This document shows, one piece after another, positions 5,966-34,831 of a stretch of 39,407 nt of DNA. The notes beneath the pieces were generated by a model that ran no database searches, was not told the origin of the DNA, and saw only the letters and a list, made by a program, of their open reading frames with translations. Numbering within the stretch: position 1 is the first letter of the stretch; every line of letters starts with the position of its first letter. The DNA comes from Escherichia coli (GTDB lineage: Bacteria > Pseudomonadota > Gammaproteobacteria > Enterobacterales > Enterobacteriaceae): assembly GCF_016903815.1 (NCBI RefSeq), contig NZ_CP069970.1; one strand, 5' to 3'. The translations under genes and the position numbers were made by a program.

Positions 5966-5968
5966 ATC

Positions 5969-6901: not shown

Positions 6902-7037
6902 TCCCTCCTTAGCTCCGGTGTAGGATTTACGTATGCCGGAGCACATCCGATAAACAATTCTTGGTTGCCTGAGTGTCAGCGTAAACCCATAGTCACCTTC
7001 GCCTCAGACGGTTAGTAACACAGGTAATGACTCCAAC

Positions 7038-7735: not shown

Positions 7736-7948
7736 AGGAGCACCTCAAAAACACCATCATACACTAAATCAGTAAGTTGGCAGCATCACCGGCATTCAAA
7801 ATCATTATGACCGCGATCTATTTCTGGCTGTTCTCTATCACTTTTGGCGGCATCGTCGCTCATGGGTAAGGGGAGTATATTAGCCATTTGGAACCCCACG
7901 GTCTCTTGCGGGTTTAATTAAGAACCCGCAAGAAAAATACGAATTGGG

Positions 7949-10900: not shown

Positions 10901-11067
10901 GATTTTACGGAAATAAATTCATAACCCTGATTCCGCAGGTCCTGAATCAGTTCACGTTCCAGGTCCGATTCGCTCTGGTAGCTGTCGCTTGTTTGCTCAG
11001 CTTTGATGTACTTATCAAGGACGATAAAGTTATTGGATTCAGCAATGGTGTGTGTTTGATGAGTCAT
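7949..11067 (-). pseudogene. hsdR: type I restriction enzyme R subunit, split into three frames by two +1 frameshifts
   Basis: Three consecutive minus-strand ORFs in three frames (10225-11067, 8589-10280, 7949-8629) that together read as one ~1040-aa HsdR (N-terminal nuclease region, RPYQ-type helicase start, C-terminal domain). Frame changes coincide with A5/T5 runs at 10279-10283 and 8615-8619; removing one base at each restores a continuous frame. Confidence 0.7.
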
Positions 11068-11188
11068 AGCGCATCCTTTGTGCCGCCTGGCAAGAGCCGG
11101 AAGGGCGTTAAGAGTGACTTCCGGCGCGTAAAAAATAGTCTATATACTGACCGGATGTTAAGGTGAGCCGGTCTGTAGCAATGGTCAA

Positions 11189-12441
<1,253 letters not shown>

Positions 12442-12445
<4 letters not shown>

Positions 12446-14004
12446 TTCTGCACCTCGCAGCCTTCAATTTCAGCCACAATCGCATCAATATCTTTGCGCA
12501 ACTGGTCGATTTTGCTGACCGTGGTTTTCAGCTCAGCATTCAGCTCAGCGATATCGATAATTTCGCGAGTATCTTTCGCTTCCACATAGCTGCTCACCGA
12601 CAGGTTATAGTCATTCGCGACAACAGTCTCAAACGCAACAGATTTCGCCAGATGAGCAACATCTTCCTTGCTGGCAAATACCTGCATAATTTTTTCGATA
12701 TGGGCATCGGTCAGGATGTTGTTGTTAGTCTCTTTTTTGAACAGTTCGCTGGCGTCAATAAACTGAACTTTGGTATCCGTTTTATGTTTAGACAGAACCA
12801 GAATGTTTACGGCAATGGTGGTGCCAAAGAACAGGTTCGGAGCCAGTGAAATCACGGTTTCGACATAGTTATTATCGACCAGATACTGACGGATTTTCTG
12901 CTCCGCGCCGCCACGGTAAAAAATGCCTGGGAAGCAGACAATCGCAGCGCGACCTTTGGCCGAAAGATAGTTCAGCGCATGTAATACAAACGCAAAGTCA
13001 GCTTTGGATTTGGGGGCCAGAACGCCAGCCGGGGCAAAACGTTCATCGTTAATCAGCGTCGGGTCATCGCTGCCAATCCATTTCACCGAATACGGCGGGT
13101 TAGAAACGATGGCATCAAACGGTTTTTCATCTCTGAAGTGCGGCTCAGTCAGTGTATTACCCAGCTTGATATCAAACTTGTCGTAGTTGATGTTGTGCAA
13201 AAACATGTTCATACGCGCCAGGTTATAGGTCGTATGGTTGATTTCCTGACCAAAAAAACCTTCTTCGATGATATGGTCATCAAACTGTTTTTTAGCCTGC
13301 AACAACAGCGAACCGGAGCCTGCTGCCGGGTCGTAGATTTTGTTAACGTGGGTCTGCCCGTGCATAGCCAGTTGTGCAATCAGCTTAGAGACGTGCTGCG
13401 GTGTAAAGAACTCGCCGCCTGACTTACCGGCATTCGCCGCATAGTTAGAAATCAGGAACTCATAGGCGTCACCGAACAGGTCAATCTGATGTTCGTGGAA
13501 GTCACCAAGTTTTAACCCTTCAACCCCTTTCAGAACCGCAGCCAGGCGGGCATTTTTATCCTTAACGGTATTCCCCAGGCGGTTACTGGTTGTATCGAAA
13601 TCAGCAAACAAACCTTTGATGTCAGCTTCTGAAGGATAACCGTAAGCAGAACTTTCGATAGCAACGAAGATGCTGTTTAAATCCGCATTCAGTCTGTCAT
13701 TGGTATTTGCTTTCGCCGCTACGTTGCAGAAAAGCTGACTGGGGTAGATGAAGTAACCTTTGGTTTTGATGGCATCGTCTTTAATGTCATCAGTAATTAC
13801 GCTGTCATCCAGTTTCGCATAACAGATACTGTCATCACCGGCTTCAATATAGCTGGAAAAATTTTCGCTGATAAAACGGTAAAAAAGCGCGCCCAAAACG
13901 TACTGCTTAAAATCCCATCCATCGACTGAACCCCTGACATCGTTAGCAATTTGCCAGATCTGGCGATGAAGCTCTGCACGTTGTTGAATACTTGTCATTT
14001 TCAT
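12442..14004 (-). CDS. hsdM: type I restriction-modification N6-adenine DNA methyltransferase subunit
   Basis: 520 aa with SAM-binding motif [10 protein letters not shown] and catalytic NPPYS; N-terminus [25 protein letters not shown] is typical of HsdM. Confidence 0.9.
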
Positions 14005-14143
14005 CCACTTATTTCAGGTTTAAGTAATTGGATGTGATTCTACAGCAACTTGGATGCTTTAGCAGTTCGGACATTAGGCTACGAATGACCTGCCTAGAGG
14101 TTTGTTAAGCCGCAAAGTGCTGGTGCTTTATGCCTGTGAAGTT

Positions 14144-14171
14144 TATAATTGTGTACACATAACGAGTACAC
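14144..14171 (+). promoter_or_regulatory. phd-doc promoter -10 (TATAAT) with palindromic operator-like sites TGTGTACACA and GAGTACAC
   Basis: TATAAT at ~14144-14149 followed by a perfect 10-bp palindrome and a related half-site immediately upstream of the phd ATG. Phd/Doc autoregulation through palindromic operators is established. Confidence 0.5.
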
Positions 14172-14180
14172 GAGGTATTT

Positions 14181-14402
14181 ATGCAATCCATTAACTTCCG
14201 TACCGCGCGCGGCAACCTTTCTGAAGTGCTCAACAATGTTGAGGCCGGGGAAGAGGTTGAAATCACCCGCAGAGGCCGTGAGCCAGCAGTAATTGTCAGC
14301 AAGGCTACTTTCGAAGCCTACAAAAAAGCGGCGCTGGATGCTGAATTTGCATCCCTGTTTGACACCCTGGACTCCACCAACAAGGAACTGGTTAACCGAT
14401 AA
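14181..14402 (+). CDS. phd: Phd antitoxin (prevent host death)
   Basis: 73 aa, [39 protein letters not shown]..., recognised as P1 Phd; TAATG overlap with doc. Confidence 0.95.
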
Positions 14403-14782
14403 TGAGGCATATATCACCGGAAGAACTTATTGCGCTTCATGATGCGAATATAAGCCGCTACGGCGGCCTGCCGGGAATGTCAGATCCGGGTAGGGCAGAG
14501 GCCATTATCGGGAGAGTTCAGGCCAGAGTTGCCTACGAAGAGATCACCGACCTTTTCGAAGTCTCCGCCACCTACCTGGTGGCTACAGCGAGAGGGCATA
14601 TATTCAATGATGCCAATAAGCGTACCGCGCTAAACAGTGCGCTGCTATTTCTACGCCGTAACGGGGTGCAGGTATTTGATTCACCAGAACTGGCAGACCT
14701 TACCGTAGGGGCTGCGACCGGAGAGATATCTGTATCTTCTGTCGCCGACACGTTACGTAGATTGTATGGTTCCGCGGAGTAG
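14402..14782 (+). CDS. doc: Doc toxin (Fic-fold kinase, death on curing)
   Basis: 126 aa, [25 protein letters not shown]..., recognised as P1 Doc. Confidence 0.95.
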
Positions 14783-14966
14783 ATTAATGGCACGTAAATA
14801 CAACAAATTGTCCCGTGAAGCGTTAAAGATGCTTCTTGATGGCGTGAGTCGCCGCGAGGTAAAGCAATACCTGGTTGGTAAGCAAATTGGTGCTAGGACC
14901 GCTATTGCTGTGTTATGCCGTCAGGAAATGGTTGTGCTTAAACAGAGAATGCCGGGCAGCAGATAA
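14766..14966 (+). CDS. pdcA: post-doc protein A
   Basis: Small ORF directly after doc, as in P1; the real start may be the internal ATG at ~14787 (MARKYNK..., preceded by GGAG). Confidence 0.55.
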
Positions 14967-14993
14967 AGCCCAATCAGTGATGAAAGGTGTGAT

Positions 14994-16037
14994 GTGAAAG
15001 CCGTAATTACTCCCTTTGTACAAAAAGAGCTTGGCGTCGCCACATTCAAAGTGGATCAGGAAGTCAGAAAGCTGGTGGAGGCTGGCCGTAAATTTATTAT
15101 GGAGCCGGTGCCGCGTGAGTTAATCGAGCACATGGACGACGGCCTCGTTGTTTCCGAGCAAACTATGGCAACAAATGAGGCGTTGCAGCCGTTTTTTAAC
15201 AGCGATGAACTGTTTCGCCGTATTGGTGGAATTGACGCGCTGGTGGCGTGGTTGCGCAGGAAAGAGGGGCAATGCCAGGCCGCAGATCGTAGCTGGTGTG
15301 ACAACCATATTGTCCACGCAGAACGAGACAATAGCGCGGTGTTGTTGTGCTGGCATCACGATAACCATTACCGGATGCGTGGTTTTAATGAGCTGAAAGA
15401 AACGCTGCATAATAATCGCGTTAACTGGATACTGGATGTCGCCCGTCAGGAAATGGGGCTTTCAGATGGCCATGTTCTAAGTATTCAGGAACTGTGCTGG
15501 TGGGCTTTCATGCGCAACATGATGCACCTGATGCCTGAAGAAGTTTGCCGTATATCAATAAATAAGATGAAAGCCGCAACGCAGGATAGCGGACCTCTGA
15601 AAGAGGCGGATATTCGCCCGTATGACGATCGCGCTACAGCATATGTTCAGATGATGGAAGAACGCGCCGCGCCGATGCGTGCAAAAGTATGCCCTGTGGA
15701 TGTTGACTCCGACCCTGGCATGGCGCATTTCAAAATACCAAAACTGCAATCGCTAAAATTACCTGAGTACATGGACTTTGTTGCTTCCCGTCCATGCTGT
15801 GGGTGTGGAGCGGCGGGAGCTGGCGCTCACATTACGCCTTATATCGTTCGTCATAGTCGATTATGCGCGCATGACATTTACGCAATTCCTCTGTGCCAGT
15901 CATGCCAGCGTGATATTGAGCGTGACCGCGATAATTGGGAGAAGACGCACGGCAGGCTGGCGATGCATCAACGATTGTTCTTTGATTACGCGCTTGGAGT
16001 CGGCGCTATCACAAGTCACTCGTCGAGCGTTAGATAA
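14994..16037 (+). CDS. pdcB: post-doc protein B
   Basis: 347-aa ORF in the P1 pdcB position between doc/pdcA and lpa; GTG start; Cys/His-rich C-terminal part. Confidence 0.65.
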
Positions 16038-16663: not shown

Positions 16664-17857
16664 GTGACCTGGGACGATCACAAGAAGAATTTTGCTCGCC
16701 TGGCGCGAGATGGTGGTTACACCATCGCACAGTATGCCGCCGAGTTTAATCTTAACCCTAATACTGCACGTCGTTATCTCCGTGCCTTCAAAGAAGACAC
16801 CAGGACAGCGGACAGCCGCAAGCCAAATAAACCAGTCAGGAAGCCACTAAAAAGCATGATCATTGATCACTCTAATGATCAACATGCAGGTGATCACATT
16901 GCGGATGAAATAGCGGAAAAACAAAGGGTTAATGCCGTTATCAGTGCCGCAGTCGAGAATGCGAAGCGCCAAAATAAGCGTATAAATGATCGTTCTGATG
17001 ATCATGACGTGATCACCCGCGCCCACCGGACCTTACGTGATCGCCTGGAACGCGACACCCTGGATGATGATGGTGAACGCTTTGAATTCGAAGCTGGCGA
17101 TTACCTGATAGATAACGTTGAAGCGCGGAAGGCCGCTCGCGCTATGTTGCGTCGGTCCGGGGCCGATGTTCTGGAAACCACTCTTCTGGAAAAGTCTCTT
17201 TCTCATCTCCTTATGCTGGAGAACGCCAGGGATACGTGTATTCGTCTGGTGCAGGAAATGCGCGATCAGCAAAAAGACGATGATGAAGGGACTCCGCCTG
17301 AATATCGTATCGCGAGCATGCTAAACAGCTGTTCCGCGCAGATAAGCAGCCTGATCAACACCATTTACAGCATCCGGAATAACTATCGAAAAGAAAGCCG
17401 GGAGGCGGAAAAGCACGCTTTATCTATGGGGCAAGCTGGCATTGTTAAGCTGGCATACGAACGAAAGCGTGAAAATAACTGGTCAGTGCTGGAAGCAGCT
17501 GAATTCATCGAGGCGCATGGCGGAAAAGTGCCGCCCCTGATGCTGGAGCAAATCAAAGCCGATCTGCGTGCTCCTAAGACCAATACCGATGATGAGGAAA
17601 GGCAAACAGCCGTCGGTGGCCCTTCTCTTGAAGATCTGGACAAAGTTGCGCGAGAACGGGCCGCCAACCGCCGCGCCGATGCCGCATTGTGGATTGAGCA
17701 GCGTAGGGAAGAAATCGCCGATATCGTTGATACAGGCGGTTATGGAGATGTTGATACTGAAGGTGTATCAAACGACCCATGGCTGGAACAAGACCTGGAC
17801 GAAGACGAGGAGGAAGACGAAGAAGTTACCCGCAAGCTATACGGGGATGATGATTAA
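16664..17857 (+). CDS. pacA: terminase/pacase small subunit PacA
   Basis: 397 aa, GTG start after AAAGGAAG; contains the pac hexamer clusters in its 5' part; TAATG overlap with pacB. Confidence 0.9.
16857..17016. other. pac packaging site: four TGATCA(N) elements (16857-16897), then three (16987-17016)
   Basis: Seen directly: TGATCAT, TGATCAC, TGATCAA, TGATCAC, then ~90 bp, then TGATCG, TGATCA, TGATCAC. Each has a GATC Dam site. This is the established P1 pac architecture inside pacA. Confidence 0.75.
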
Positions 17858-19341
17858 TGGCCAGAAGTTGCGTAACGGATCCACGTTGGCGCGAGCTGGT
17901 GGCGCTATATCGTTATGACTGGATTGCTGCCGCTGATGTTTTGTTCGGCAAAACACCTACCTGGCAGCAGGATCTGATTATTGAGTCTGTGCAGGAACAG
18001 GGTAGCAAGACATCTGTTTCGTCTGGTCACGGTACCGGGAAATCAGACATGACTTCTATCATGATCATGTTGTTCATAATCATGTATCCCGGTGCCCGCG
18101 CCATTATCGTTGCGAACAAAATTCAGCAGGTAATGACCGGTATATTCAAGTACATCAAGATAAACTGGGCTACTGCCACCAGCCGTTTTCCATGGCTTGC
18201 TGATTATTTTGTTCTGACAGAAACCGCTTTCTATGAGGTTACTGGTAAAGGTGTATGGACTGTAGTACCGAAGGGCTTTCGTCTGGGAAGTGAAGAAGCT
18301 CTCGCCGGTGAACACGCAGATCATCTTCTGTATATTATCGATGAAGCCTCCGGTGTCAGTGATAGAGCTTTCGGTATCATCACCGGTGCTCTTACCGGAC
18401 AGGATAACCGCATCTTATTGCTGTCACAGCCTACACGCCCAAGCGGCTATTTCTACGATACACACCATAAACTGGCCAAGCGTCCTGGTAACCCTGATGG
18501 CGTTTATACGGCGATCACGCTTAACAGTGAGGAATCACCGTTGGTAACGCCAGCATTTATCAAAATGAAGCTGGCGGAGTACGGCGGGCGTGATAACCCT
18601 ATGTACATGATTAAGGTACGCGGCCTATTCCCTAAATCACAGGATGGCTTCCTTCTTGGACGTGATGAGGTTGAACGTGCAACGCGGCGGAAAGTCAAGA
18701 TTGCCAAAGGATGGGGCTGGCTTGCATGTGTGGACGTTGCTGGTGGTACGGGACGGGATAAGTCCGTTATCAATATCATGATGGTGTCCGGCCAGCGAAA
18801 TAAACGCCGTGTAATCAACTATCGAATGCTGGAATACACAGACGTTACAGAAACGCAGCTTGCCGCCAAAATTTTCGCAGAATGTAATCCTGAGCGATTC
18901 CCAAATATCACCATAGCGATAGACGGCGATGGCCTGGGTAAAGCAACGGCGGATCTGATGTACGAGTATTATGGTATTACCGTACAGCGTATACGCTGGG
19001 GTAAAAAGATGCATAGCCGTGAAGATAAGAGCCTGTACTTTGATAAACGTGCTTATGCCAACGTTCAAGCCGCAGAGGCCGTAAAATCTGGTCGTATGAG
19101 ACTGGATAAGGGTAATGAAACTATTGAGGAAGCGTCGAAAATCCCTGTAGGGATTAACTCCGCAGGTCAATGGAAGGTGATGAGTAAGGAGGATATGAAG
19201 AAAAAACTCAACCTGCACTCACCAGACCATTGGGATACATATTGTTTCGCTATGCTGGCGGATTATGTTCCCCAGGATGAAGTGCTTAGCGTCGAAGACG
19301 AAGCGCAGGTTGATGAAGCTCTGGCATGGCTTAATGAATGA
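17857..19341 (+). CDS. pacB: terminase/pacase large subunit PacB
   Basis: 494-aa ORF translationally coupled to pacA; terminase-like ATPase region. Confidence 0.9.
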
Positions 19342-19344
19342 ATA

Positions 19345-19361
19345 TTTGCTCTAATAAATTG
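19345..19361 (+). promoter_or_regulatory. C1 operator-like site TTTGCTCTAATAAATTG at the pacB 3' end
   Basis: 15/17 match to the C1 operator consensus, 4 nt after the pacB stop and ~190 bp upstream of the c4-like RNA. Confidence 0.5.
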
Positions 19362-19544
19362 TGTTTTTTAACTACCGATGTTACATTGAGCCTGACCTCT
19401 TGCGCCTTGAGGCATTTTCGGTTTATGCTTATCAGGCACCTCATTAAAACGGGTGCCGGGATTGGCCTCCCGCTTAAGTCTAAGGCGATACAGACGCCGC
19501 TCGCGTCTTTTTTTTGTATCGGCGTACACGCACACCTCTACAAT

Positions 19545-19624
19545 GGTGGGCTGTATGGGGCTACCTTCGGGTAGGCTGGTTACCTTGGACGCCAGTAAGG
19601 CCAACTCCGTACAGTCCACCGCCA
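19545..19624 (+). ncRNA. c4: C4-like antisense RNA (tRNA-like acceptor stem with 3' GCCA)
   Basis: 11-bp closing stem GGTGGGCTGTA (19545-19555) pairs with TACAGTCCACC (19610-19620) with one G-U, followed by GCCA. Internal UUCG-tetraloop hairpin CTACC-TTCG-GGTAG. Candidate -10 TACAAT at 19539-19544. Size ~77-80 nt. Internal boxes are complementary to repeated target boxes on both sides. Confidence 0.55.
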
Positions 19625-19628
19625 GCAA

Positions 19629-19672
19629 GATTGGTCTCTTCTGCGGTGGTTACATACCAACGTCTAAGGAGG
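19629..19672 (+). promoter_or_regulatory. icd leader with antisense target boxes (GATTGGTCTC and CGTCTAAGG overlapping the AAGGAGG Shine-Dalgarno)
   Basis: Box CGTCTAAGG (19661-19669) is complementary to RNA segment CCTTGGACG (19583-19591); box TTGGTCT is complementary to RNA AGGCCAA (19598-19604). A second copy of both boxes lies upstream at 19460-19485. Confidence 0.45.
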
Positions 19673-19680
19673 CTGCCAAT

Positions 19681-19902
19681 ATGGCTACTATCCCTACCCC
19701 AACTCATCCTGAATTTATCTGGCGCTTTTACTCCTGCCAAAAACGTCACTATCACTTCGTTATTGCACCGACAGAAGATGAGGCCCGCTCTCAGCTTCCT
19801 GACGCCCCATGTATTTTCTCTGCCCGTTTTTCCACTGATTCACGCAATTCTCTCAGTTACTGGTGCCTCCCTGTTAACGCTTCTGCTCAGGAGGGACTAT
19901 GA
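19681..19902 (+). CDS. icd: Icd-like cell-division inhibitor (73 aa)
   Basis: Strong SD TAAGGAGG 8 nt before the ATG; 73 aa MATIPTPTHPEFIWRFYSCQKRHYHFVIAPTEDEARSQLPDAPCIFSARF... with an Icd-like motif; stop overlaps the next start (ATGA). Confidence 0.6.
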   Translation: MATIPTPTHPEFIWRFYSCQKRHYHFVIAPTEDEARSQLPDAPCIFSARFSTDSRNSLSYWCLPVNASAQEGL

Positions 19903-21017
19903 GAACGTCATTAGTCACCCGTGAAGAGATGATCGAGGCAATTGAACAGCACACTGCCTGTATCAGTACCAGGGATATACCAGGCGTTATTGCCAACTAC
20001 TTCATGATCACCAAACAACTTTACCGGAGAAAGGACAAGAACGCGGTTCACCGTATCCTGTTGTCTGATATCCGCGAATACCTGCTCGAACAGGGTCATC
20101 TGAATTACGCAACCGCCGCAGCCGAAGCACGCAAGGAGGCACACAGAATGAAAGCAACTAACGTTAAATCAGAAAAAATTCATGCACCTTCAGTTCAAGA
20201 ATCGGAGCTGGTGGTTGTTCAGAATCAGTCTGATGAAATTCCCGTTCTGGAATGGCAGGGAGTGCGTGTAGTGACAACCGAGACTCTTGCTAGAGGGTAT
20301 GGGACAGAAACAATCCGTATTCGCCAAAATCATCATGAGAACAAAGTACGCTTTGTTGAAGGGAAGCACTTTTTCAAAGTTGAAGGAGAATCATTGCGCG
20401 AGTTGAAGCACAGAGTAGCTTTAAACTACTCTGTAAAAATTGCTCGCAATGTTCGCTCACTCACCCTCTGGACAGAACGCGGCGCAGCCCGCCACGCTAA
20501 AATGCTCGAAACCGATCAGGCATGGGCATTCTTTGAAAAACTGGAAGACAGCTACTTCCGACAAAAAGAACAGCAACCGATCGCAATCCCCCAGACGCTT
20601 CCTGAAGCCCTACGCCTGGCTGCCGAACTGGCTGAACAAAAGCAACTTCTGGAACAGAAAGCCCACCAGCTAAATCAGCAGCTGGTGGCCGCCGCTCCTA
20701 AAGTCGATTTTGCCGACCGGGTATCAGTAGCTAAAGGGATCCTGATTGGGAATTTTGCAAAGGTTGTTGGACTTAAACAAAACGCGCTGTTTGTCTGGTT
20801 ACGGGAGAACGGCATCCTGATAGCGTCCGGTGGACGTAAAAATGTGCCGTTCCAGCAGTACATCAACGCGGGGTATTTCACGGTGAAAGAAGTGGTGCTG
20901 GATGATGAAGATGGCTACCAGATACGGTTGACGCCTCAATTAACGGGTAAAGGCCAGCAGTGGTTGACGCGTAAACTGCTCGATGCTGGCTTGTTAAAAC
21001 CGGTGGCGGCTGAATAA
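19899..21017 (+). CDS. ant: antirepressor Ant (N-terminal ORF6N/KilA-N-like domain + C-terminal KilAC/ANT domain)
   Basis: 372 aa (~42 kDa) with an in-frame internal Met near aa 83 that would give a ~32 kDa product, like P1 Ant1/Ant2. LEWQGVRVVTTETLARGYG... is ORF6N-type; the C-terminal AAPKVDFADRVSVAKGILIGNFAKVVG... is ANT/KilAC-type. Confidence 0.7.
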   Translation: MRTSLVTREEMIEAIEQHTACISTRDIPGVIANYFMITKQLYRRKDKNAVHRILLSDIREYLLEQGHLNYATAAAEARKEAHRMKATNVKSEKIHAPSVQESELVVVQNQSDEIPVLEWQGVRVVTTETLARGYGTETIRIRQNHHENKVRFVEGKHFFKVEGESLRELKHRVALNYSVKIARNVRSLTLWTERGAARHAKMLETDQAWAFFEKLEDSYFRQKEQQPIAIPQTLPEALRLAAELAEQKQLLEQKAHQLNQQLVAAAPKVDFADRVSVAKGILIGNFAKVVGLKQNALFVWLRENGILIASGGRKNVPFQQYINAGYFTVKEVVLDDEDGYQIRLTPQLTGKGQQWLTRKLLDAGLLKPVAAE

Positions 21018-21049
21018 TGGAAGAATGCCCGGTTGATGCCGGGCATAAT

Positions 21050-21901
21050 TTATTGCGCGCTTTCGGGGTTGTCGTTTACTGGCTGCCCCTTCTTGGTTTT
21101 ACGGCTGCGCGTAACTGATGCGGCTGACTTAACCTTTTTCTCTTCGCGAGTGATGGCAATTTGTTTTTTTACATTTTCAATATCTGCCAGGCGATATATT
21201 TTTGCTTGCGGCCAGCGGTCGCAGATGATCGGTTCTATGGAGTCATAAAGGCTAAATTTTGCTTTTTCGAATTCACCGTTGATGATAATTCCATCACGGA
21301 GAGTTTCATCGCAGATAAACACGCCACACAGTGGCACATGGTAACTAACTGATTTACCATCATTGTAGTTAGGGCTACTGGAAATGTAGTGGACGCGCAG
21401 CATTGTTTCGCTAAAGCCGTGTACGCGCATACGGAATTTTTCATCCTCCGGGTACTGCTTCATTAGCTCTTTTGTTGCTTCCAGGTTCTCTATGTATTTC
21501 GCACTGTGCTCATTGATCCCCGCGCTTTTTTGGATGCGAATGTCCTTATCAATCAGATGAATAATGCGGCCAGCGGTCATGTTGACGCTGTTCACAGCTT
21601 CTGTCTGATAAGTTGTAACCTTACGCACACCGCGAAGGATGTTAGGCACTGGATATAAAATAGTCTTTGGGATATTGAGGTCTGGGTACTGTTCCAGTTC
21701 CCGCGCCATTAAAGTCCATTTATCAATTTCAGCCTGAATGCTGTCAGTTTCTTTGAACGGTAGAACGACAACCGGGCGTACAGGACGACCGTCGCTGGCT
21801 GTATCAACGTGTTGGGCGCGTGCAACAGCTTTTTTTAGAAAGAGATCCCTGAAGCTGACGAACTCCTGGTACAGTTGTTCGCCGTAGACATAATTTATCA
21901 T
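21050..21901 (-). CDS. c1: C1 repressor of lysis (primary immunity repressor)
   Basis: 283 aa, MINYVYGEQLYQEFVSFRDLFLKKAVARAQ..., recognised as P1 C1. Confidence 0.95.
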   Translation of the reverse strand: MINYVYGEQLYQEFVSFRDLFLKKAVARAQHVDTASDGRPVRPVVVLPFKETDSIQAEIDKWTLMARELEQYPDLNIPKTILYPVPNILRGVRKVTTYQTEAVNSVNMTAGRIIHLIDKDIRIQKSAGINEHSAKYIENLEATKELMKQYPEDEKFRMRVHGFSETMLRVHYISSSPNYNDGKSVSYHVPLCGVFICDETLRDGIIINGEFEKAKFSLYDSIEPIICDRWPQAKIYRLADIENVKKQIAITREEKKVKSAASVTRSRKTKKGQPVNDNPESAQ

Positions 21902-21995: not shown

Positions 21996-22012
21996 AGATT
22001 TATTAGTGCATT
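21996..22012 (-). promoter_or_regulatory. C1 operator-like site between c1 and coi
   Basis: AGATTTATTAGTGCATT is a 14/17 reverse-complement match to the operator consensus. Confidence 0.4.
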
Positions 22013-22221
22013 TATTGTGAGTCTAACTGGTTAGTTGCCATGAGATATTCGATTGTGTCAGTGAGGTCATCCAAGTCGTCTTGGGTGATGCGGTACTCCT
22101 GATTGGATATCTTTGAGTAGTGTTCAGCAATGGCGCGGGCAGCGTCGGTTTCGGCAGGGTCTACAGATAAAGCGTTAGAGCAATGTCTAACGTCGTCGAT
22201 GGTTGGTTGAATGAAAGCCAT
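22012..22221 (-). CDS. coi: Coi, C1 inactivator
   Basis: 69 aa, MAFIQPTIDDVRHCSNALSVDPAETDAARAIAEHY..., directly upstream of c1 on the same strand. Confidence 0.9.
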   Translation of the reverse strand: MAFIQPTIDDVRHCSNALSVDPAETDAARAIAEHYSKISNQEYRITQDDLDDLTDTIEYLMATNQLDSQ

Positions 22222-23046: not shown

Positions 23047-24078
23047 ATGTCCAATTTACTGACCGTACACCAAAATTTGCCTGCATTACCGGTCGATGCA
23101 ACGAGTGATGAGGTTCGCAAGAACCTGATGGACATGTTCAGGGATCGCCAGGCGTTTTCTGAGCATACCTGGAAAATGCTTCTGTCCGTTTGCCGGTCGT
23201 GGGCGGCATGGTGCAAGTTGAATAACCGGAAATGGTTTCCCGCAGAACCTGAAGATGTTCGCGATTATCTTCTATATCTTCAGGCGCGCGGTCTGGCAGT
23301 AAAAACTATCCAGCAACATTTGGGCCAGCTAAACATGCTTCATCGTCGGTCCGGGCTGCCACGACCAAGTGACAGTAATGCTGTTTCACTGGTCATGCGA
23401 CGGATCCGAAAAGAAAACGTTGATGCCGGTGAACGTGCAAAACAGGCACTGGCGTTCGAACGCACTGATTTCGACCAGGTTCGTTCACTCATGGAAAATA
23501 GCGATCGCTGCCAGGATATACGTAATCTGGCATTTCTGGGGATTGCTTATAACACCCTATTACGTATAGCCGAAATTGCCAGGATCAGGGTTAAAGATAT
23601 CTCACGTACTGACGGTGGGAGAATGTTAATCCATATTGGCAGAACGAAAACGCTGGTTAGCACCGCAGGTGTAGAGAAGGCACTTAGCCTGGGGGTAACT
23701 AAACTGGTCGAGCGATGGATTTCTGTCTCTGGTGTGGCTGATGATCCGAATAACTACTTGTTTTGCCGTGTCAGAAAAAATGGTGTTGCCGCGCCATCTG
23801 CCACCAGCCAGCTATCAACTCGCGCCCTGGAAGGGATTTTTGAAGCAACTCATCGATTGATTTACGGCGCTAAGGATGACTCTGGTCAGAGATACCTGGC
23901 CTGGTCTGGACACAGTGCCCGTGTCGGAGCCGCGCGAGATATGGCCCGCGCCGGAGTTTCAATACCGGAGATCATGCAAGCTGGTGGCTGGACCAACGTA
24001 AATATTGTCATGAACTATATCCGTAACCTGGATAGTGAAACGGGGGCAATGGTGCGCCTGCTGGAAGATGGCGATTAG
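23047..24078 (+). CDS. cre: Cre site-specific tyrosine recombinase
   Basis: 343 aa, MSNLLTVHQNLPALPVDATSDEVRKNLMDMFRDRQAFSEHTWKMLLSVCRSWAAWCKLNN..., recognised as P1 Cre. Confidence 0.98.
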   Translation: MSNLLTVHQNLPALPVDATSDEVRKNLMDMFRDRQAFSEHTWKMLLSVCRSWAAWCKLNNRKWFPAEPEDVRDYLLYLQARGLAVKTIQQHLGQLNMLHRRSGLPRPSDSNAVSLVMRRIRKENVDAGERAKQALAFERTDFDQVRSLMENSDRCQDIRNLAFLGIAYNTLLRIAEIARIRVKDISRTDGGRMLIHIGRTKTLVSTAGVEKALSLGVTKLVERWISVSGVADDPNNYLFCRVRKNGVAAPSATSQLSTRALEGIFEATHRLIYGAKDDSGQRYLAWSGHSARVGAARDMARAGVSIPEIMQAGGWTNVNIVMNYIRNLDSETGAMVRLLEDGD

Positions 24079-24095: not shown

Positions 24096-24112
24096 ATTGC
24101 TCTAATCATTTG
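24096..24112 (+). promoter_or_regulatory. C1 operator-like site between cre and cra
   Basis: ATTGCTCTAATCATTTG, a 14/17 match. Confidence 0.5.
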
Positions 24113-24128
24113 ATATTTATGGTGACAC

Positions 24129-24440
24129 ATGCGGAAGGATTTCAAAATAGACGGAAAATATGTGGTGCTGTCTGTAAGCTCTCAAATTCAGTCACCATCT
24201 GTCATTGTCACCGTAAAGTTGAGCGATAGGATGCCTGATATCGACTCGATATCTGTTGCGTTCCCCGTTAAAAGTATGCGGAGTGCTGAACATTTTGTGA
24301 TGAATGCAACGGAGGAGGAAGCGCGGCGCGGGCTTACTAGAGTGATGGCGGAATTTGGCGAACTCCTGGGTAAGGTAAACAATGCCCTTTCAATCAGTTC
24401 AGCAAGATCCAAAGCGTTAACAGCTTCCATGATGAAATAA
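24129..24440 (+). CDS. cra: Cra (cre-associated function)
   Basis: 103-aa ORF immediately downstream of cre, as in P1. Confidence 0.6.
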   Translation: MRKDFKIDGKYVVLSVSSQIQSPSVIVTVKLSDRMPDIDSISVAFPVKSMRSAEHFVMNATEEEARRGLTRVMAEFGELLGKVNNALSISSARSKALTASMMK

Positions 24441-24571
24441 AAAAAGCCTGGCAAGGAGCCAGGCTGCACAAAAGAGCGGGTTTGTATTCCGCATCCAATC
24501 AATCAAGAAGGAGTATAGCACACAGGTACTGAAGTGAAAAAATGTGATTCGCGATTAACAAAATATCTACC

Positions 24572-24595
24572 ATTGCTCTAATTGATTGCTATAAT
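24572..24595 (+). promoter_or_regulatory. C1 operator ATTGCTCTAATTGATTG overlapping an extended -10 promoter (TGCTATAAT) for ref
   Basis: Operator-like 17-mer at 24572-24588; extended -10 TGnTATAAT at 24587-24595. Confidence 0.6.
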
Positions 24596-24655
24596 TAAGC
24601 CGCAGTTTTTGTCAACTACGAAGACGTTGCCATTACTTAACTCCTTGACATCATT

Positions 24656-24681
24656 GGCGGCCATTAGGCCGCCTTTTTTTT
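24656..24681 (+). terminator. leader hairpin GGCGGCC-ATTA-GGCCGCC followed by T8, 6 nt before the ref ATG
   Basis: Perfect 7-bp GC stem with a T8 run, placed between the C1-controlled promoter and the ref start. Confidence 0.45.
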
Positions 24682-24686
24682 GCCAT

Positions 24687-25247
24687 ATGAAAACAATCGA
24701 ACAAAAACTTGAACAGCGCCGCGAGTGGCAGAAGGCTGCCAGAGAACGAGCGATCGCTCGGCAACGGGAAAAGTTGGCTGACCCCGCTTGGCGAGAATCG
24801 CAATATCAGAAAATGCGGGATTCTATCGACCGCCGTATCGCTAAACAGAAAGAGCGCCCACCAGCCAGCAAAACGCGGAAAAGCGCGGTAAAAATAAAAT
24901 CTCGTGGCTTGAAGGGGAGAACACCAACGGCGGAGGAACGGCGCATCGCCAATGCTCTTGGCGCTCTCCCCTGCATTGCCTGCTACATGCATGGAGTAAT
25001 ATCTGAAGAGGTATCTCTGCACCATATCTCCGGTCGTACCGCGCCGGGTTGTCACAAAAAGCAATTGCCCCTTTGTAGATGGCACCACCAGCATGCAGCA
25101 CCGGCTGAAGTAAGAGAAAAATACCCCTGGCTGGTCCCTGTTCATGCCGATGGTGTGGTTGGAGGCAAGAAAGAATTCACCTTGCTGAACAAGTCAGAGA
25201 TGGAGTTGCTGGCTGACGCCTATGAGATGGCAAACATCATGCACTAA
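24687..25247 (+). CDS. ref: Ref, recombination enhancement function (HNH-type endonuclease)
   Basis: 186 aa from MKTIEQKLEQRREWQKAARER...; Cys/His cluster CIACYMHG...HH...CRWHH. The track ORF start at 24582 lies inside the operator and is rejected. Confidence 0.9.
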   Translation: MKTIEQKLEQRREWQKAARERAIARQREKLADPAWRESQYQKMRDSIDRRIAKQKERPPASKTRKSAVKIKSRGLKGRTPTAEERRIANALGALPCIACYMHGVISEEVSLHHISGRTAPGCHKKQLPLCRWHHQHAAPAEVREKYPWLVPVHADGVVGGKKEFTLLNKSEMELLADAYEMANIMH

Positions 25248-25397
25248 TAAATATATTATTTTTAATCTGAAATAATTGACAACTGACAAGTGACTTCAGT
25301 CAGAATCATCACATGCCCGGTACGGATGGATCCCTTTTCAAATATTCCATGGACGGCACAGTCTGAGTACCGGGCGCTACCTTCAGTTGTATTGCTA

Positions 25398-25424
25398 AGC
25401 CGCCGCTGGTGGCTTTTCTTTTTT
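25398..25424 (+). terminator. hairpin AGCCGCC-GCT-GGTGGCT followed by a T-rich run, ~10 nt before the next start codon
   Basis: 7-bp stem (one G-U) plus TTTCTTTTTT. Confidence 0.4.
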
Positions 25425-25436
25425 GTAGGGGGCGCT

Positions 25437-26078
25437 ATGGATAAGAAAATATGCGTTGTGTCGATGAGCGTCGGCAAACCGGCGTCAATGACTGCTGCAT
25501 GGATCAATAACGAGCTGATAATGGCTGAGCGGACCAGCTACCCTGAACGCCGCCGCGATATGGAACTCCAGCTGCTGCGCGAATTGCGAGAAAAAGAGGA
25601 AAAGGGTTTTATCGTGCTGGTGGAAGAGGAAAACAGCTTTATTACTGGTCGAGTTGGCCAGCGTGTAAGGTTGCGCGATCCCTTCATGAACGGCAGGCCG
25701 GTACTAATTGAGGCAATGCAGATTTATAAGGAGCTGGAACGCCAGAAAGCAATCAAGTTACCGCGCAAGGAATCCGGCAAATACATTCTCCACCAAAGCA
25801 TCTTCGATTCCGAACACGATAAAAAAGGCGATGAATTTTTCAACATCAACTGGAGCGAAATAACGACAGAGCATGTTCTGACGTTACTATGTTGCTTTGC
25901 GACGGAATACAACAACGTTGCCAGCGCCGACTACATCAGGGCAATGGCTGGAGAAGTTGAGGCCCGCCAAGAACCATCGTTACTAAGTCCACTGATTAAC
26001 ATAATTCTGGGCACCCAGATACTGGAACAAAAAAAAGTGCCGAAAGGGGTATTAACAGGCAAGCATAATTATTTTTAA
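25437..26078 (+). CDS. hypothetical protein in the P1 mat position
   Basis: ATG at 25437 preceded by GGGGG; 213 aa. The track ORF extends to an upstream GTG at 25290. No recognisable motif. Confidence 0.5.
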   Translation: MDKKICVVSMSVGKPASMTAAWINNELIMAERTSYPERRRDMELQLLRELREKEEKGFIVLVEEENSFITGRVGQRVRLRDPFMNGRPVLIEAMQIYKELERQKAIKLPRKESGKYILHQSIFDSEHDKKGDEFFNINWSEITTEHVLTLLCCFATEYNNVASADYIRAMAGEVEARQEPSLLSPLINIILGTQILEQKKVPKGVLTGKHNYF

Positions 26079-26171
26079 CAATTACATACAGTAATTTTGT
26101 GGTTACATTCTCCATTGATTTTCTAACCGCTTTATCATTAGATGTAACAGCATGTAAATCATTTAAAATGG

Positions 26172-27308
26172 ATGAAAGCAATGGGGAATGAAGTTTATCA
26201 AAGTCAAAAATGCAAGTTGAAATATTCAAAATCTCAAATTGATAGGGCTGCTCAATTGATAAGGCACGGGTGTAGTGACGAAGAAAGGCAGCAATCTATT
26301 GAAATGATACAAAATTTCCGTGAGCTGCATCTTTATCCATTAATGCTCATGAAAAATCATTTAGCAAGAGCAGCTGCTAAGGTTGACAAGGACAAAAAGA
26401 TTCTCGTTGCAAGAAGACTTAAGCGACTTTCTACCATAATAGATAAACTAGAGCGTCCTAGTCTTGATGGAGGCAGAACTAGCAATGCAATTAAATTAAC
26501 ACGGATGCAGGACGTTGGCGGATGTAGGGCCATTGTCAGAAACTTAGACCAGTTGATACAGCTAAAGGAACGTCTTTTAAAAAGCAAATCTGTTCATAGG
26601 ATTGTTAAAGAGTATGATTATCTTACTCCCAAAGACAGCGGCTATAGTGGAATCCACCTTGCATACAGTTGCTTCGATCAGAAAGAGGATCAATATCCGT
26701 GGCGAAAAACAAAGATTGAGATACAGTTAAGAACTCAATTGCAGCATGCTTGGGCTACCAGCCTTGAAATAATTGATACCCTTGAAGGTATCAAGCTGAA
26801 AACTTCAAGTGAAGGGCATCCAGAATGGAGACGATTTTTCTATCTAGCCGGATGTCTTGTAGCGCACGACGAAAAAGCCTGCACTCTTGATGAGCTAGTT
26901 GTATCTCAGTATGAAGGCGAGCTTAAAGAGCTGGAACGGACTTTATCTGTACGGAGGAAACTAAGCACATACACCATCGCCTTAAATTTAACTTCTGACG
27001 CGAATTTGATTAAGAAGTTGCCAAAAAATCATAAGGGGCATTACTTAGTAACAATGAGAAATGCAGAAAACAAGCCCAATACAAAAAACAAAAAAATGTT
27101 CCTAGTGTCTGTTCGCGCATTTAAAACAAAAGAAGCAGATGAAGCCCTTGAGGCCTTAAATAAAGACGATTCTAATCCTAATGTATTGATATCTGTTCTC
27201 GTTGCTACAGATAACATTAAGTCACTAAAAAAAGCCTACCCCAACTATTTTGGCTCAACAAACCAGTTTACAAAATTCTTAGATAAGCATCTTCGTAACG
27301 AAGGATAG
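26172..27308 (+). CDS. capRel: fused toxSAS (RelA/SpoT-like nucleotidyltransferase) with C-terminal extension; CapRel-like
   Basis: 378 aa. RelA/SpoT synthetase-fold motifs: DVGGCRAIV, DYLTPKDSGYSGIHL, IEIQLRTQLQHAWA. ~110-aa C-terminal extension without Cys. No separate small antitoxin ORF adjacent. AT-rich relative to flanks. Occupies the slot between the mat-position gene and lxc where P1 has res-mod. Confidence 0.7.
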   Translation: MKAMGNEVYQSQKCKLKYSKSQIDRAAQLIRHGCSDEERQQSIEMIQNFRELHLYPLMLMKNHLARAAAKVDKDKKILVARRLKRLSTIIDKLERPSLDGGRTSNAIKLTRMQDVGGCRAIVRNLDQLIQLKERLLKSKSVHRIVKEYDYLTPKDSGYSGIHLAYSCFDQKEDQYPWRKTKIEIQLRTQLQHAWATSLEIIDTLEGIKLKTSSEGHPEWRRFFYLAGCLVAHDEKACTLDELVVSQYEGELKELERTLSVRRKLSTYTIALNLTSDANLIKKLPKNHKGHYLVTMRNAENKPNTKNKKMFLVSVRAFKTKEADEALEALNKDDSNPNVLISVLVATDNIKSLKKAYPNYFGSTNQFTKFLDKHLRNEG

Positions 27309-27314
27309 TTGCTT

Positions 27315-27343
27315 AATTTTGCCCGGTAATTCCGGGCAAAATT
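27315..27343. terminator. bidirectional terminator AATTTTGCCCGG-TAATT-CCGGGCAAAATT between the toxSAS gene and lxc
   Basis: Perfect 11-12 bp inverted repeat flanked by A/T runs, between convergent genes. Confidence 0.7.
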
Positions 27344-27344
27344 G

Positions 27345-27593
27345 TCAATCTGCATTCAGGAGCAATGCGTTATCTATGATGATCTGCTCCCATTCTTCGA
27401 ATGCCCGATCGCGGACGCCCTGGGGAACACTGTTAGTTTTGAAATCGACCACCGTCCGCCATTTCCCGTCCGGGCGGTACATGCGCAGAGCTTTACTTCC
27501 CCCTTCCCTGCGCACCTCAACGTTATGCTTATCAGCAAACTCTTGTAATGCTCGTAGCGTCCCATGCTTTACTGTGTAGTATCGCTTTTTCAA
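27345..27593 (-). CDS. lxc: Lxc/Bof, C1 co-repressor
   Basis: 82 aa, MKKRYYTVKHGTLRALQEFADKHNVEVRREGG...; size and position match P1 lxc. Confidence 0.8.
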   Translation of the reverse strand: MKKRYYTVKHGTLRALQEFADKHNVEVRREGGSKALRMYRPDGKWRTVVDFKTNSVPQGVRDRAFEEWEQIIIDNALLLNAD

Positions 27594-28030
27594 GTTTTCT
27601 CTCCAGCCTGTGCCAAGGCTTCAACTTCCAAATCGTAAGACTCAAACTCATAGTCCTGGTCGTCAACTTCTTCAGGCACTGGCAGTAAATGCCAGGCTGA
27701 GTATATCTGACCATTATCAAAACGCTCCTGGCTGTAGAGCGTCGCGGCTATGAGTGTTAGCGCCGGGCGGTCATAACGGTAAATTTTGCGAACGTCACGG
27801 TCAACGAGACGACCGAAATTACCATAACCGCGCTCCAGTAATAATTTTTTAATTTCCGGCCAGTATGGGCCATAGCTGCGGTACAGGCGGGGATTTTTCA
27901 GTAATCGCCCGCGTAGCCCTGACAGGAAGAAATCAACGTATTCGTCTTCTGTCTTTCCTAACAATGCCGTACGCAGTACCGCCTCAAGATATGTTTTATT
28001 CGGTTTTATTGTATCAGATAGTGTGGCCAT
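27590..28030 (-). CDS. ulx: Ulx (upstream of lxc)
   Basis: 146-aa ORF between lxc and darB, as in P1. Confidence 0.7.
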   Translation of the reverse strand: MATLSDTIKPNKTYLEAVLRTALLGKTEDEYVDFFLSGLRGRLLKNPRLYRSYGPYWPEIKKLLLERGYGNFGRLVDRDVRKIYRYDRPALTLIAATLYSQERFDNGQIYSAWHLLPVPEEVDDQDYEFESYDLEVEALAQAGEKT

Positions 28031-28063
28031 ATTATGCGACGCCCGGCGAACCGGGCGCTCCTG

Positions 28064-34000: not shown

Positions 34001-34831
34001 TGCCGGATGTTTGCGCATCAGCACCACATCAACGACTGTACTGGTCCCGTTTGCGTCAAAAGTACCGGTAGGCAAGCGGTGAGCGCCAAGAAATTCAGCT
34101 TTACGGGATAAGCGCAGGCGTAACCGCTTCATGTTTGAACCTGAAACAATGGACGGCGGCACAATCACGCACATGAATCCGCCTGGCTTTATCTTGTCCA
34201 GCATGCGGAGCATGAAGTAAGAACCCATGTCCGTTTCTTCTGCGTAAGGCTTATCGATGTTGCGTGTGTTATCACGACCGCCGAACGGAACGTTACCCAC
34301 AACATGGTCGAATGAATCGTTAGGCGTGCTTATAGCCAGCTGTTCGAACGGGGAAATCTGTACGCTGTCTTCCGGGTGTAACAACTGGTTTATACGACCG
34401 GAAACACTGCTGATCTCAGTCGCGGTCATCACCGTACCAACCGGTTTTGTCTCATTAAAAACGCCGGTTCCCGCCGATGGTTCCAGAGTGTTACCTACGT
34501 CCGCGCCGTAGAGCTTCATGATCTCCCAGACACCTTCAGCGATCGGCTTTGGTGTGTAATATTCGGAGACGGACCCGCCAATGCCGCCTTCACCGGTGTA
34601 CCCAGCCAGGATCTGGCGCTGTTCATCTGTCAGTGTCGCGCCGTCCACCAGCGAATTAAGCAAATCTATCGCCTTCTGATTCGCCTCCCGGCGCAGTCGG
34701 TCATAGCTTTTGCCTTCCACCTTTTCCACGCCGTATTTAATCGGCGCTCGGTGAGATGTTATTGCCCTAATGTATTTCAATATTTCGCTGACACTTGAAC
34801 AGCGAAACACCCCCATAAATAGCTTGTTCAT
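28064..34831 (-). CDS. darB: DarB, defence against restriction (methyltransferase-helicase, virion-packaged)
   Basis: 2255 aa, the same length as P1 DarB; N-terminal methyltransferase-like region and central DExH helicase motifs. Confidence 0.9.
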   Translation of the reverse strand: MNKLFMGVFRCSSVSEILKYIRAITSHRAPIKYGVEKVEGKSYDRLRREANQKAIDLLNSLVDGATLTDEQRQILAGYTGEGGIGGSVSEYYTPKPIAEGVWEIMKLYGADVGNTLEPSAGTGVFNETKPVGTVMTATEISSVSGRINQLLHPEDSVQISPFEQLAISTPNDSFDHVVGNVPFGGRDNTRNIDKPYAEETDMGSYFMLRMLDKIKPGGFMCVIVPPSIVSGSNMKRLRLRLSRKAEFLGAHRLPTGTFDANGTSTVVDVVLMRKHPAEMAEKIPLVDESTLESANVLWPTFISGKWFEKDGRRFVHGTQEKGFQGRIEVRADGQIDNQALKAKLIHRFESRIDWSLLDMAEPSPTADVVDEGEMRLINGVWQKYAGGRWIEADAGKELKIDAASYGADSWEALQRNLTTTEGRLGMTFTQMANVRDKYTTSISDDMVQLVDWINSQPEKYRERLYRGAMIGRMLIEYQDMKAAGHSAEQIEQQRLSLVSRLQAEIDRFGNPGRGPIAKLSGSGARAWFAFRGAIKLDGTISDELTGKLVTHDSSASYDSTSYQDTLRYLYSDLTRDPIQLDDFRLAFTGELPASDEELLNLLASTPGIAVSPYGGIVPFARATSGDINEIVAPKQEFLATLPDGPVKNNVLNQLAAIEEKRIKTPAENIRFKLNSRWFDRSVILEFLQENGYPDLRYVQSVQLEGDEMVSDTYHGGDGLFVGHRYGVVQRKDKETGEIRYEWDRKSGENATGFPAQLEKYLNGARIGGKDSATANGYREQMALLEDQFNKWIKTHDRYDELVAKYNDVFNSNIPYEHSGDPLGLKGLSGKRQPFDYQNSEVRRLSEDGRGILGFGTGLGKTTTALALEAFNYENGRSTRTAYVVPKSVLENWYYEAKEFLSEEAFSNYLFVGLDVLMDGDQIRQVPVLDENGKPVLGTDGTPVMRDALKLADEATITARMNAIPHSNYRAVVFTKEQYARIPLRDDTVDEHAQDMLYDFVAAGRVASAMDSDSHRKEAARRRVLSEYSDTGTEKAEKYPYFEDMGFDSVIADEGHNYRNSYKNGREASQLAYLPTSAVAQSARDMAIKNAYLMKKNGGRGPVLLTATPVVNTPIDAYNMLSHVLPKEYWQKMGIYGPDDFVKFFGKTRLETVQKISGEVEEKMALVGFENLDALRGIFHRWTTLKTAEDVKDTVEIPELDEHQQDAPLTEEQLAAYEELRQQAEAAAKANNGVTTSVNEDGVIEHEKARPIFSIIRDMDRVCTDMDLYYRRITYRFLPEYADAVQQLADSLPKQATSEDDDSDDSITQQSQYSLIDKGEFIQLQVPEAFEQEVNNRLAKFGIDEQTVTHPVTPKYAKLIATLKAFFPEGKQIIFTDEKTQHQKLKRIICNALNLEPSKVGILNAQTVAEAGKTGKKLKAVKPPKELPDEPTDAQIAKYNEQMALYDAYIAQQNEMSLGGLEKIAADFQEGRTPIIICNKKAEVGINLHRGTTDIHHLTLPWTPASIAQRNGRGARVGSNRASVRVHYYCGKGSFDEYRLKTLKRKAGWISDILRSDKSEMENADANDMIEMQMYTAKDDGERLVMMQVQMDKAKAAKRARQKEQATIDLQNYIKAQHAAGEDVEVLTAELERSKAELEKTTADVAKFKQAVMAKAADNADWKARWGSVHHTDRMLLAQYRASLKSAIQRKANISQAISRYEKLLNRTQKAATDIKRLRPLVEDAINKGILDVDPDLVNHANEFLVIGDRSWRVGQYYDCAGDIVRIKSLDFDSQRADVEIIFTFKGTKSGNWDVKTLDKQVDVTPDEDAVMQKISGGVSIAGINDIISCDDFYRFQQRGMIKITDSYGVQTTESGYSIDFVGTYTDPLKHAVYPDRRDGALKSSIAKWVLGMMSEGNNRQIRSAETFLVELFGSNYGDVIASYGDTLSPEAIQEKIADAIAKMPEKTSQGATRNGDSELEVTNAIFGTHEFRASDYEITTAQFGTIGIYSNKDEIKQAMDAASARIAAERKANLNHAVAALTQSWVTAIREAATTGKITPAIADVVNDGSKFMDAYQMDAVKLPSAYGQLSYRMTYNLVSMFSDLAILGLVDLNEVTPELLSMRKNHVEILQRVNTVLAGRTDEEKQADADRINLALGNITEEEIAARNEKQEELSSIQGDATSIAQSLGLNYRVSTADLKMMYAPKFAAGEVFGLQEASGMKGVLFRAKDAIKAKFGARWLPAKAKNSDFPGNWWIIETKHNVADVLAVIQQYA

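Follow-up and report, generated by a model that had tools for sequence, protein, structure and literature searches.

The immI region of the phage-plasmids P1 and P7 encodes secondary immunity and is ordered as a C1 operator, the gene for the antisense RNA C4, icd, and the antirepressor genes ant1/ant2. How C4 and immI operate in P1 was reportedly worked out by Citron and Schuster and by the group of Heinrich. A related arrangement is the isrK-orf45-anrP locus of Gifsy-1, where the antirepressor gene anrP is translated more than 100-fold better when IsrK, supplied in trans, pairs with the orf45 region (Hershko-Shalev et al. 2016; PMC4825925). IsrK pairs with transcript positions 159-173, inside orf45, whose nucleotide but not amino-acid sequence is conserved and from which an RNA of about 80 nt is processed; in that study the pairing is taken to switch the structure of orf45, and C4 is not mentioned (PMC4825925). 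The present analysis concerns a 39,407-nt stretch of Escherichia coli contig NZ_CP069970.1 (the window), which is part of a P1-like (Punavirus) phage-plasmid. Comparison of its sequence with these systems suggests that the segment between pacB and c1 is probably a functional second secondary-immunity module of the immI type with an orthogonal RNA code of its own.

In the P1 reference (NC_005856) the pacB stop at 93206 and the c1 end at 93231 leave a spacer of 24 bp, whereas the corresponding interval of the window is about 1.7 kb. Alignments with P1 place the left edge of the extra segment immediately past the pacB stop and its right edge about 4 nt short of the c1 stop codon. A sequence-only reading had stated that pacB and c1 nearly adjoin in canonical P1 and that immI lies far away, and both statements are correct: no c4-icd-ant block stands between the two genes in reference P1, and immI is about 45 kb distant. 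It had also recognized in the interval the organization of P1/P7 immI, and the operator, c4, icd and ant1/ant2 are indeed all present in the same order. The C1 operator-like 17-mer that it reported has two mismatches to the consensus and is homologous to Op51, which predicts C1 binding. The window holds eight operator-like sites with at most three mismatches, against 0.14 expected, and the others coincide with known P1 operator positions. Whereas immI lies between sim and kilA-repL, the module stands between pacB and c1 and is convergent with c1.

The RNA part of the module is a tandem of an IsrK-type leader and C4 (Table 1). The leader consists of hairpin 1, hairpin 2 with site a1 in its loop, a linker with site b1, and a terminator hairpin (19492-19508) that runs into a T tract. 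The T8 hairpin noticed earlier is real (19492-19516), but it forms the 3' end of this a1/b1-bearing leader and is not a free-standing terminator. P1 immI has a c4-a1b1 leader (RF03163) in the same place; that model scores only 20.5 bits on the window leader, against a gathering score of 46.7, and despite the low score the a1 and b1 sites are present and co-vary. The strong hairpin with T8 and the recognition code likewise set this leader apart from that of P1 and P7. The next RNA had been described as tRNA-like, of about 77-80 nt. A structured RNA does lie there, with a fold of -41.6 kcal/mol (z = -3.75), and it is a C4 match; ARAGORN finds no tRNA in it, and the tRNA identity was rejected.

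Within C4, a' and b' occupy the same structural positions as in the P1/P7 RNA, whose fold it shares. The hairpin 2 loop offers CCUUGGAC (19583-19590), complementary to b1 of the leader, and the second target, b2, overlaps the icd Shine-Dalgarno sequence UAAGGAGG (19665-19672), again as in P1/P7. The arrangement of a1/b1, a'/b' and a2/b2 is the logic annotated for P1 immI. The entire read-through leader, in its minimum-energy fold, shows cis pairing of a1 to a' and of b1 to b'. Two open reading frames (ORFs) overlap the RNA genes and were treated as spurious: a 78-aa ORF at 19338-19574 has no family match, and an N-terminally extended icd frame of 149 aa matches nothing beyond the Icd domain. 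RefSeq/PGAP annotation places a partial "ash family protein" pseudogene over C4 (window 19543-19656, equivalent to L053 2699-2812) and annotates no RNA gene; P4-like satellites bear this label over their IsrK-C4 region as well. Translated RNA sequence may underlie the "ash family" protein model.

Evidence that these sites act together comes from their variation. A search of IMG/VR with the junction of the pacB stop and the operator returned 36 contigs, to which reference phages were added for allele typing. Four pacB-c1 alleles were distinguished: A, exemplified by the window, with a site UUGGCC and b site GUCUAAGG; B, as in RCS47, with UUGAGAC and GUCAAAGG; C, as in JL22, with UUGAGAC and GCAAAAGG; and D, as in contigs L014 and L022, with UUGGAAC and GCAAAAGG. 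In each allele the three copies of a and the three copies of b shift in concert. An alignment of nine IsrK-type leaders, made up of the pacB-c1 alleles, two P4-like satellites, Gifsy-1 and two Stx phages, gives 98.5% paired cells for a1:a' plus b1:b', with 11 of 15 pairs changed on both sides; none of 500 shuffles attains this, and slid controls are paired at 32-52%. For a':a2 plus b':b2 the figures are 92.6% paired cells and 10 of 15 pairs compensatory (0/500 shuffles). In a crude comparison of duplex energies, not constrained by position, every cognate pair (-19.6 to -22.2 kcal/mol) is the best of its row and column in the 9 x 9 matrix; the known heteroimmune pair P1/P7 gives -9.3 and -14.3 in the same comparison. 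These comparisons suggest that the RNA recognition logic is under selection.

The proteins of the module are unambiguous homologues of P1 Icd and Ant. As the sequence-only reading had proposed, a 73-aa icd-like ORF with a Shine-Dalgarno sequence is followed by a translationally coupled 372-aa antirepressor. The icd product matches the NCBIfam model phage_ICD_like (NF033153) at 49.8 bits (cut-off 25). Pfam domains of Ant are ORF6N at residues 116-202 and ANT/KilAC at 260-361, and a nested Ant2-like start at 20148 (M84) stands behind AAGGAGG-N7-ATG, at the 83-codon offset of P1 ant1/ant2. Overall Ant is 56% identical to P1 Ant1, with conserved ends and a replaced centre. Among 26 copies, icd retains 73 aa and the ATGA overlap in all, ant is 370-372 aa long in 20, and the internal start is kept in 25. 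Both genes are mostly intact, and dN/dS of 0.02-0.14 for icd and 0.16-0.36 for ant indicates purifying selection. One reference phage, vB_EcoM-673R5 (ON470615.2), differs from the window by small indels: its isrK falls below the gathering score, its annotated ant ORF is short, and its c1 is split into several ORFs. This pattern looks like homopolymer sequencing errors rather than biology.

The N- and C-terminal parts of Ant are those of P1 Ant1/Ant2, and Ant would therefore be expected to act on C1. An alternative is that the module is intact but its Ant targets the repressors of other resident prophages, or is itself a Roi/Rha-like DNA-binding regulator, so that it would serve inter-element warfare or control of lytic growth and not P1 heteroimmunity. 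The ORF6N centre, which P1 Ant1 does not have, fits this alternative, as do GenBank records that label the protein "Roi DNA-binding protein" and the use of the IsrK-C4 front end to drive Rha-family regulators in Stx phages and, on another circuit, the Gifsy-1 antirepressor. It is nevertheless improbable, given that the ends of Ant and the offset of its nested start match P1 Ant1/Ant2, that the predicted C1 control site precedes the module, and that the module adjoins c1 in all copies retrieved via the pacB-side junction, with c1 annotated beside it wherever this was checked.

Table 1. Features of the pacB-c1 segment and neighbouring genes, in window coordinates.
Feature	Position	Strand	Sequence, evidence or remark
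Extra segment relative to P1, in place of the 24-bp spacer	19342..~21046	+	Alignments with P1, RCS47 and JL22 junctions; P1 annotation
C1 operator-like 17-mer, counterpart of Op51/Oc4	19345..19361	+	TTTGCTCTAATAAATTG; 2 mismatches; aligns with Op51 of P1 and P7
Putative operator-overlapping promoter, counterpart of P1 P51a	19359..19387	+	TTGTGT, 17-nt spacer, TG-n-TACATT; sequence reading
Putative leader promoter	19400..19429	+	TTGCGC, 18-nt spacer, TATGCT; sequence reading
IsrK-family leader RNA	19436..19513	+	Rfam RF01394, 60.8 bits (gathering 50), model positions 1-77 of 77; fold; terminator scan; covariation
a1	19462-19468	+	UUGGCCU; loop of leader hairpin 2
b1	19478-19485	+	GUCUAAGG; leader linker before terminator
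C4 antisense RNA	19539..19626	+	Rfam RF01695, 75.9 bits (gathering 45), full model length
b'	19583-19591	+	CCUUGGACG; loop of C4 hairpin 2
a'	19598-19604	+	AGGCCAA; single-stranded C4 junction; complementary to a1
a2 target, icd-ant mRNA leader	19631..19637	+	UUGGUCU; 7 bp with a', -8.3 kcal/mol; covariation
b2 target	19661..19669	+	CGUCUAAGG; 9 bp with b', -13.9 kcal/mol; covariation
icd-like gene, 73 aa	19681..19902	+	80% identical to P1 Icd; ribosome-binding site TAAGGAGG; phrog_1426
ant, Ant1-like antirepressor gene, 372 aa	19899..21017	+	ATG overlaps icd stop as ATGA; phrog_63
Hairpin between convergent ant and c1	21025..21046	.	ATGCCCGG-TTGATG-CCGGGCAT; terminator scan
pacA	16664-17857	+	
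pacB	17857-19341	+	Stop at 19341
c1	21050-21901	-	Stop codon at 21050
coi	22012-22221	-	
cre	23047-24078	+	

The module is common. PLSDB contains 702 plasmids with pacB/c1 junction sequences. These sequences are contiguous, as in P1, in 314 of them, and at least 80% of the module is present in 289, so that about 40% of the P1-like plasmids in this database have it. At least 80% of the RNA-plus-icd part is found in 259 of 5426 complete E. coli genomes. Most of the matching places are on plasmids (538), and 140 are on chromosomes; the chromosomal places, in the cases examined, are weaker, partial matches to P4-like elements. One contig (IMGVR_UViG_2698536372_000019, L043; reverse strand, 6196-10540) holds an ant-truncated copy of the module, the last 43 nt of pacB, and then a second copy, an arrangement that reflects either partial duplication in tandem or misassembly.

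Expression of the module is predicted from promoters assigned by hand. The operator-overlapping promoter has the geometry of P1 P2c4, with a -35 hexamer that begins 3 nt before the operator end. The leader promoter ends 6 nt 5' of the first base of the IsrK model, which matches the CTATATT-N6 arrangement before Gifsy-1 isrK. At the right end, the hairpin between ant and c1 is a probable two-way terminator.

Several observations weigh against a functional immunity module. A consensus promoter scan with a threshold of 9 of 12 finds no plus-strand promoter in the leader, and the counterpart of P51b aligns but its -10 hexamer is not conserved. An intrinsic terminator sits between the putative promoters and c4, and the supply of C4 therefore depends on read-through; c4-icd-ant follows directly 3' of the hairpin and T8, and the scan places no strong promoter between them. 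The central third of Ant differs from that of P1, with an ORF6N domain in its place, so that only the conserved ends point to C1 as its target, and ant is shortened or altered in 5 of the 26 copies. The duplex energies are crude, and one non-cognate value among them is as high as -18.0, which a hit to a 4-bp GGCC palindrome and a discontinuous b contact produce together.

Taken at their strongest, the weak promoter consensus and the truncated ant genes would make the segment a decaying remnant of recombination, passively carried and neither regulated nor expressed; the partial tandem duplication in one contig and the success of P1 and P7 without the module could be read in the same way. Such decay is very improbable, since icd is intact in all 26 copies and ant keeps its length in most, dN/dS stays between 0.02 and 0.36, compensatory changes are retained at three RNA sites across four alleles, and the module persists in the plasmids and genomes counted above.

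A functional module could still be the resident immI in a new place, and the sequence-only reading had called it "relocated or additional". It is additional. Several E. coli plasmids, each about 97 kb long, match window positions 15000-39407 with 100% identity, among them pMB9880_2 (NZ_CP103764.1) and NZ_CP027133.1, and pMB9880_2 also carries the canonical c4-icd-ant-kilA-repL block, the second immI that the same reading had proposed to look for in the rest of the replicon. The extra segment recurs in RCS47, JL22 and vB_EcoM-673R5 (92%, 87% and 99.7% identity), and these too keep canonical immI beside kilA-repL. Because canonical immI is retained in all of these replicons, relocation was rejected.

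The two loci of such a replicon carry different codes. At the canonical locus P1 has a site UUGACAG and b site GUUAGUG; P7 has UUAGCAG and GAUUGUG; JL22 combines a P1-type a site with a P7-type b site; 673R5 has a P7-type a site with ACGAAUG; and pMB9880_2 (L049 27760-28130) has a P7-type a site with ACUUACG. The pacB-c1 code is unrelated to all five. In the C4 RNAs of one replicon, the module reads a = GGCCAA and b = CCUUGGAC, and the canonical locus reads a = CUGCUAA and b = CGUAAGU. As a side observation, canonical immI is itself polymorphic: the b codes ACGAAUG and ACUUACG do not occur in P1 or P7, and JL22 is a P1-a/P7-b recombinant.

The origin of the module is mosaic. From 19342 to about 19418, the operator and promoters are closest to the Op51/P51a/P51b region of P1. 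The leader, C4 and icd start (~19419-19722) are closest to P4-like satellites at yicC/rph, with 84-89% identity. In Ant, the N-terminal 83 aa are again closest to P1 Ant (~65% identical), the centre is the ORF6N domain not found in P1 Ant1, and the C-terminal ~145 aa are closest to P1 Ant (~90%). Synonymous divergence of the module icd and ant from P1 immI is saturated (dS >1), and the module is therefore an old relative and not a fresh duplicate; a recent duplication of the resident immI was rejected on this ground and on the closeness of the RNA part to P4-like satellites. The module is a recombinant of the P1 immI design and an IsrK-C4 front end of a type widespread among other temperate elements.

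Mosaicism leaves the direction of change to be weighed. With function unaltered, the module could be ancestral to the P1 group, and P1 and P7 deletion derivatives. The 24-bp spacer of P1 retains only ATGCCGG of the right-end terminator hairpin, one half of it; the two haplotypes are about equally frequent (314 contiguous junctions and 289 with the module, among 702 plasmids); and the divergence from canonical immI is old. A shared 7-mer is short, however, and the affinity of the RNA part with satellites and not with P1 fits acquisition by recombination. This reversed polarity is accordingly judged unlikely, although it keeps more weight than the other alternatives considered here.

A working scheme for the module follows from established P1 biology (NC_005856 annotation). 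In a lysogen, C1 bound to the operator would shut the operator-overlapping promoter, and the weaker leader promoter would keep leader transcription going. Most transcripts would end at the T8 terminator and yield a short IsrK-like RNA. Transcripts that read through would supply both the C4 precursor, presumably trimmed by RNase P as in P1, and the icd-ant mRNA. Mature C4 would pair with a2 and b2 and block icd translation, and Ant synthesis would be blocked in turn through icd-ant coupling and probably through Rho-dependent polarity as well. Once made, Ant would inactivate C1. The short leader, with its perfect a1/b1 decoys, likely titrates C4 and sets a threshold; this role as competitor draws weight from the trans activation by IsrK in Gifsy-1 (PMC4825925).

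Gifsy-1 shares more with the module than its leader. In Gifsy-1 (NC_010392, L048), the orf45 region is a C4 match in Rfam at 69 bits (34329..34131, minus strand). The 5' half of isrK also matches c4-a1b1 above the gathering score, at 48.1 bits, and the isrK and c4-a1b1 models thus lie on the same stretch. Complementarity also links its a1/a'/a2 sites and its b1/b'/b2 sites, with b2 placed on the ribosome-binding site of anrP. In both systems an IsrK-family leader stands upstream of an antirepressor operon, and the antirepressor gene overlaps a preceding ORF as ATGA and is coupled to it. The leader of each matches a stretch some 130 nt farther downstream, with equal spacing in the two; Gifsy-1 expression proceeds by terminator read-through, as is proposed for the module. 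Gifsy-1 differs in having no separate icd and no C1 operator, and its antirepressor is another protein, which feeds into AntQ. IsrK is likely identical with the a1b1 decoy of C4 systems.

Other temperate elements carry the same RNA logic with other codes. The RNA part is about 79% identical in Stx-converting (Oslovirus) phages. In the P4-like satellites at yicC/rph, an Icd-like ORF comes right after b2. Unlike the module, these elements have Rha-family regulators or P4-type primase operons downstream and lack the C1 operator and Ant1/Ant2. On two E. coli chromosomes (L046 and L047), IsrK-C4-Icd-like modules between yicC and a P4-family primase share the a code GGCCAA, and their b codes differ; cross-talk between satellites and phage-plasmids is conceivable if the a site alone permits partial pairing.

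Parts of this picture have been recorded before. An "ant" is annotated at the pacB-c1 locus in the RCS47 GenBank record (FO818745), and it belongs to the same module at the same locus. Venturini et al. (2019) mention in a single sentence that RCS47 and pTZ20_1P have an ant gene at the pacB-c1 junction (PMC6906374); the text searched names only the antirepressor gene and two short hypothetical ORFs, with no RNA genes, operator, code or relation to immI. The same paper describes, as region RD-1 of pSvP1, a further set of icd-ant1/2 homologues inserted in the res-mod region of this plasmid, which has a modified ImmI (PMC6906374). Modules of this kind may therefore shift between a number of variable sites in P1-like genomes. 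The IsrK-C4 tandem is already annotated in some Stx phage records and was noted earlier in APSE phages. A literature search, with most subscription-journal papers outside its range, returned no description of the RNA genes, operator, code or double-immI arrangement, and the JL22 paper is silent on them. The insertion itself is thus known and common; the RNA part, the code and the double immI are not described in the literature searched.

The rest of the window has its own history. Positions 1-15000 are cargo and not P1 backbone: they hold a type I restriction-modification cluster (HsdR/M/S), an AAA ATPase and IS2, and they occur at 98.6% identity on thousands of unrelated plasmids. For 24100-39407, identity to NZ_CP103764.1 gives neighbours annotated as a RelA/SpoT-domain protein, a TnpB RNA-guided endonuclease and an N-6 DNA methylase; that plasmid also encodes an anti-phage dGTPase, outside the window region.

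Unrelated codes at the module and at canonical immI imply that each such phage holds two independent antirepressor "keys" and two C4 "locks". A prophage of this kind would silence incoming Ant genes of two specificities, and a superinfecting phage would escape residents without a matching C4 for both modules. For immunity to hold between phages of this kind, the resident would have to supply a matching C4 for each of the two incoming modules. The sequence-only reading had expected altered heteroimmunity, which is consistent with the predicted orthogonal code. A bolder extension, offered tentatively and with somewhat less than even confidence, is that P1-like phage-plasmids run a combinatorial two-locus heteroimmunity code in which the terminated leader acts in trans as an anti-antisense RNA, or C4 sponge. 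At least four alleles occur at pacB-c1 and at least five a/b combinations at the canonical locus, and the outcome of superinfection would depend on matching at both. If the leader is such a sponge, the activation of orf45 attributed to Gifsy-1 IsrK would really be IsrK titrating C4, and IsrK (RF01394) and c4-a1b1 (RF03163) would be the same functional element.

The analysis exposes an annotation gap, with the C4 gene of the module given in RefSeq as a partial protein pseudogene. It also connects two separately curated RNA families, IsrK on one side and C4 with c4-a1b1 on the other, and points to a simpler reading of the published Gifsy-1 IsrK mechanism. In E. coli, Salmonella and Klebsiella, P1-like phage-plasmids are common vehicles of resistance genes, and immunity governs which of them can invade or displace which resident. 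A second, orthogonal switch in about 40% of them would yield testable predictions for superinfection, for the induction of prophages by incoming relatives and for plasmid displacement.

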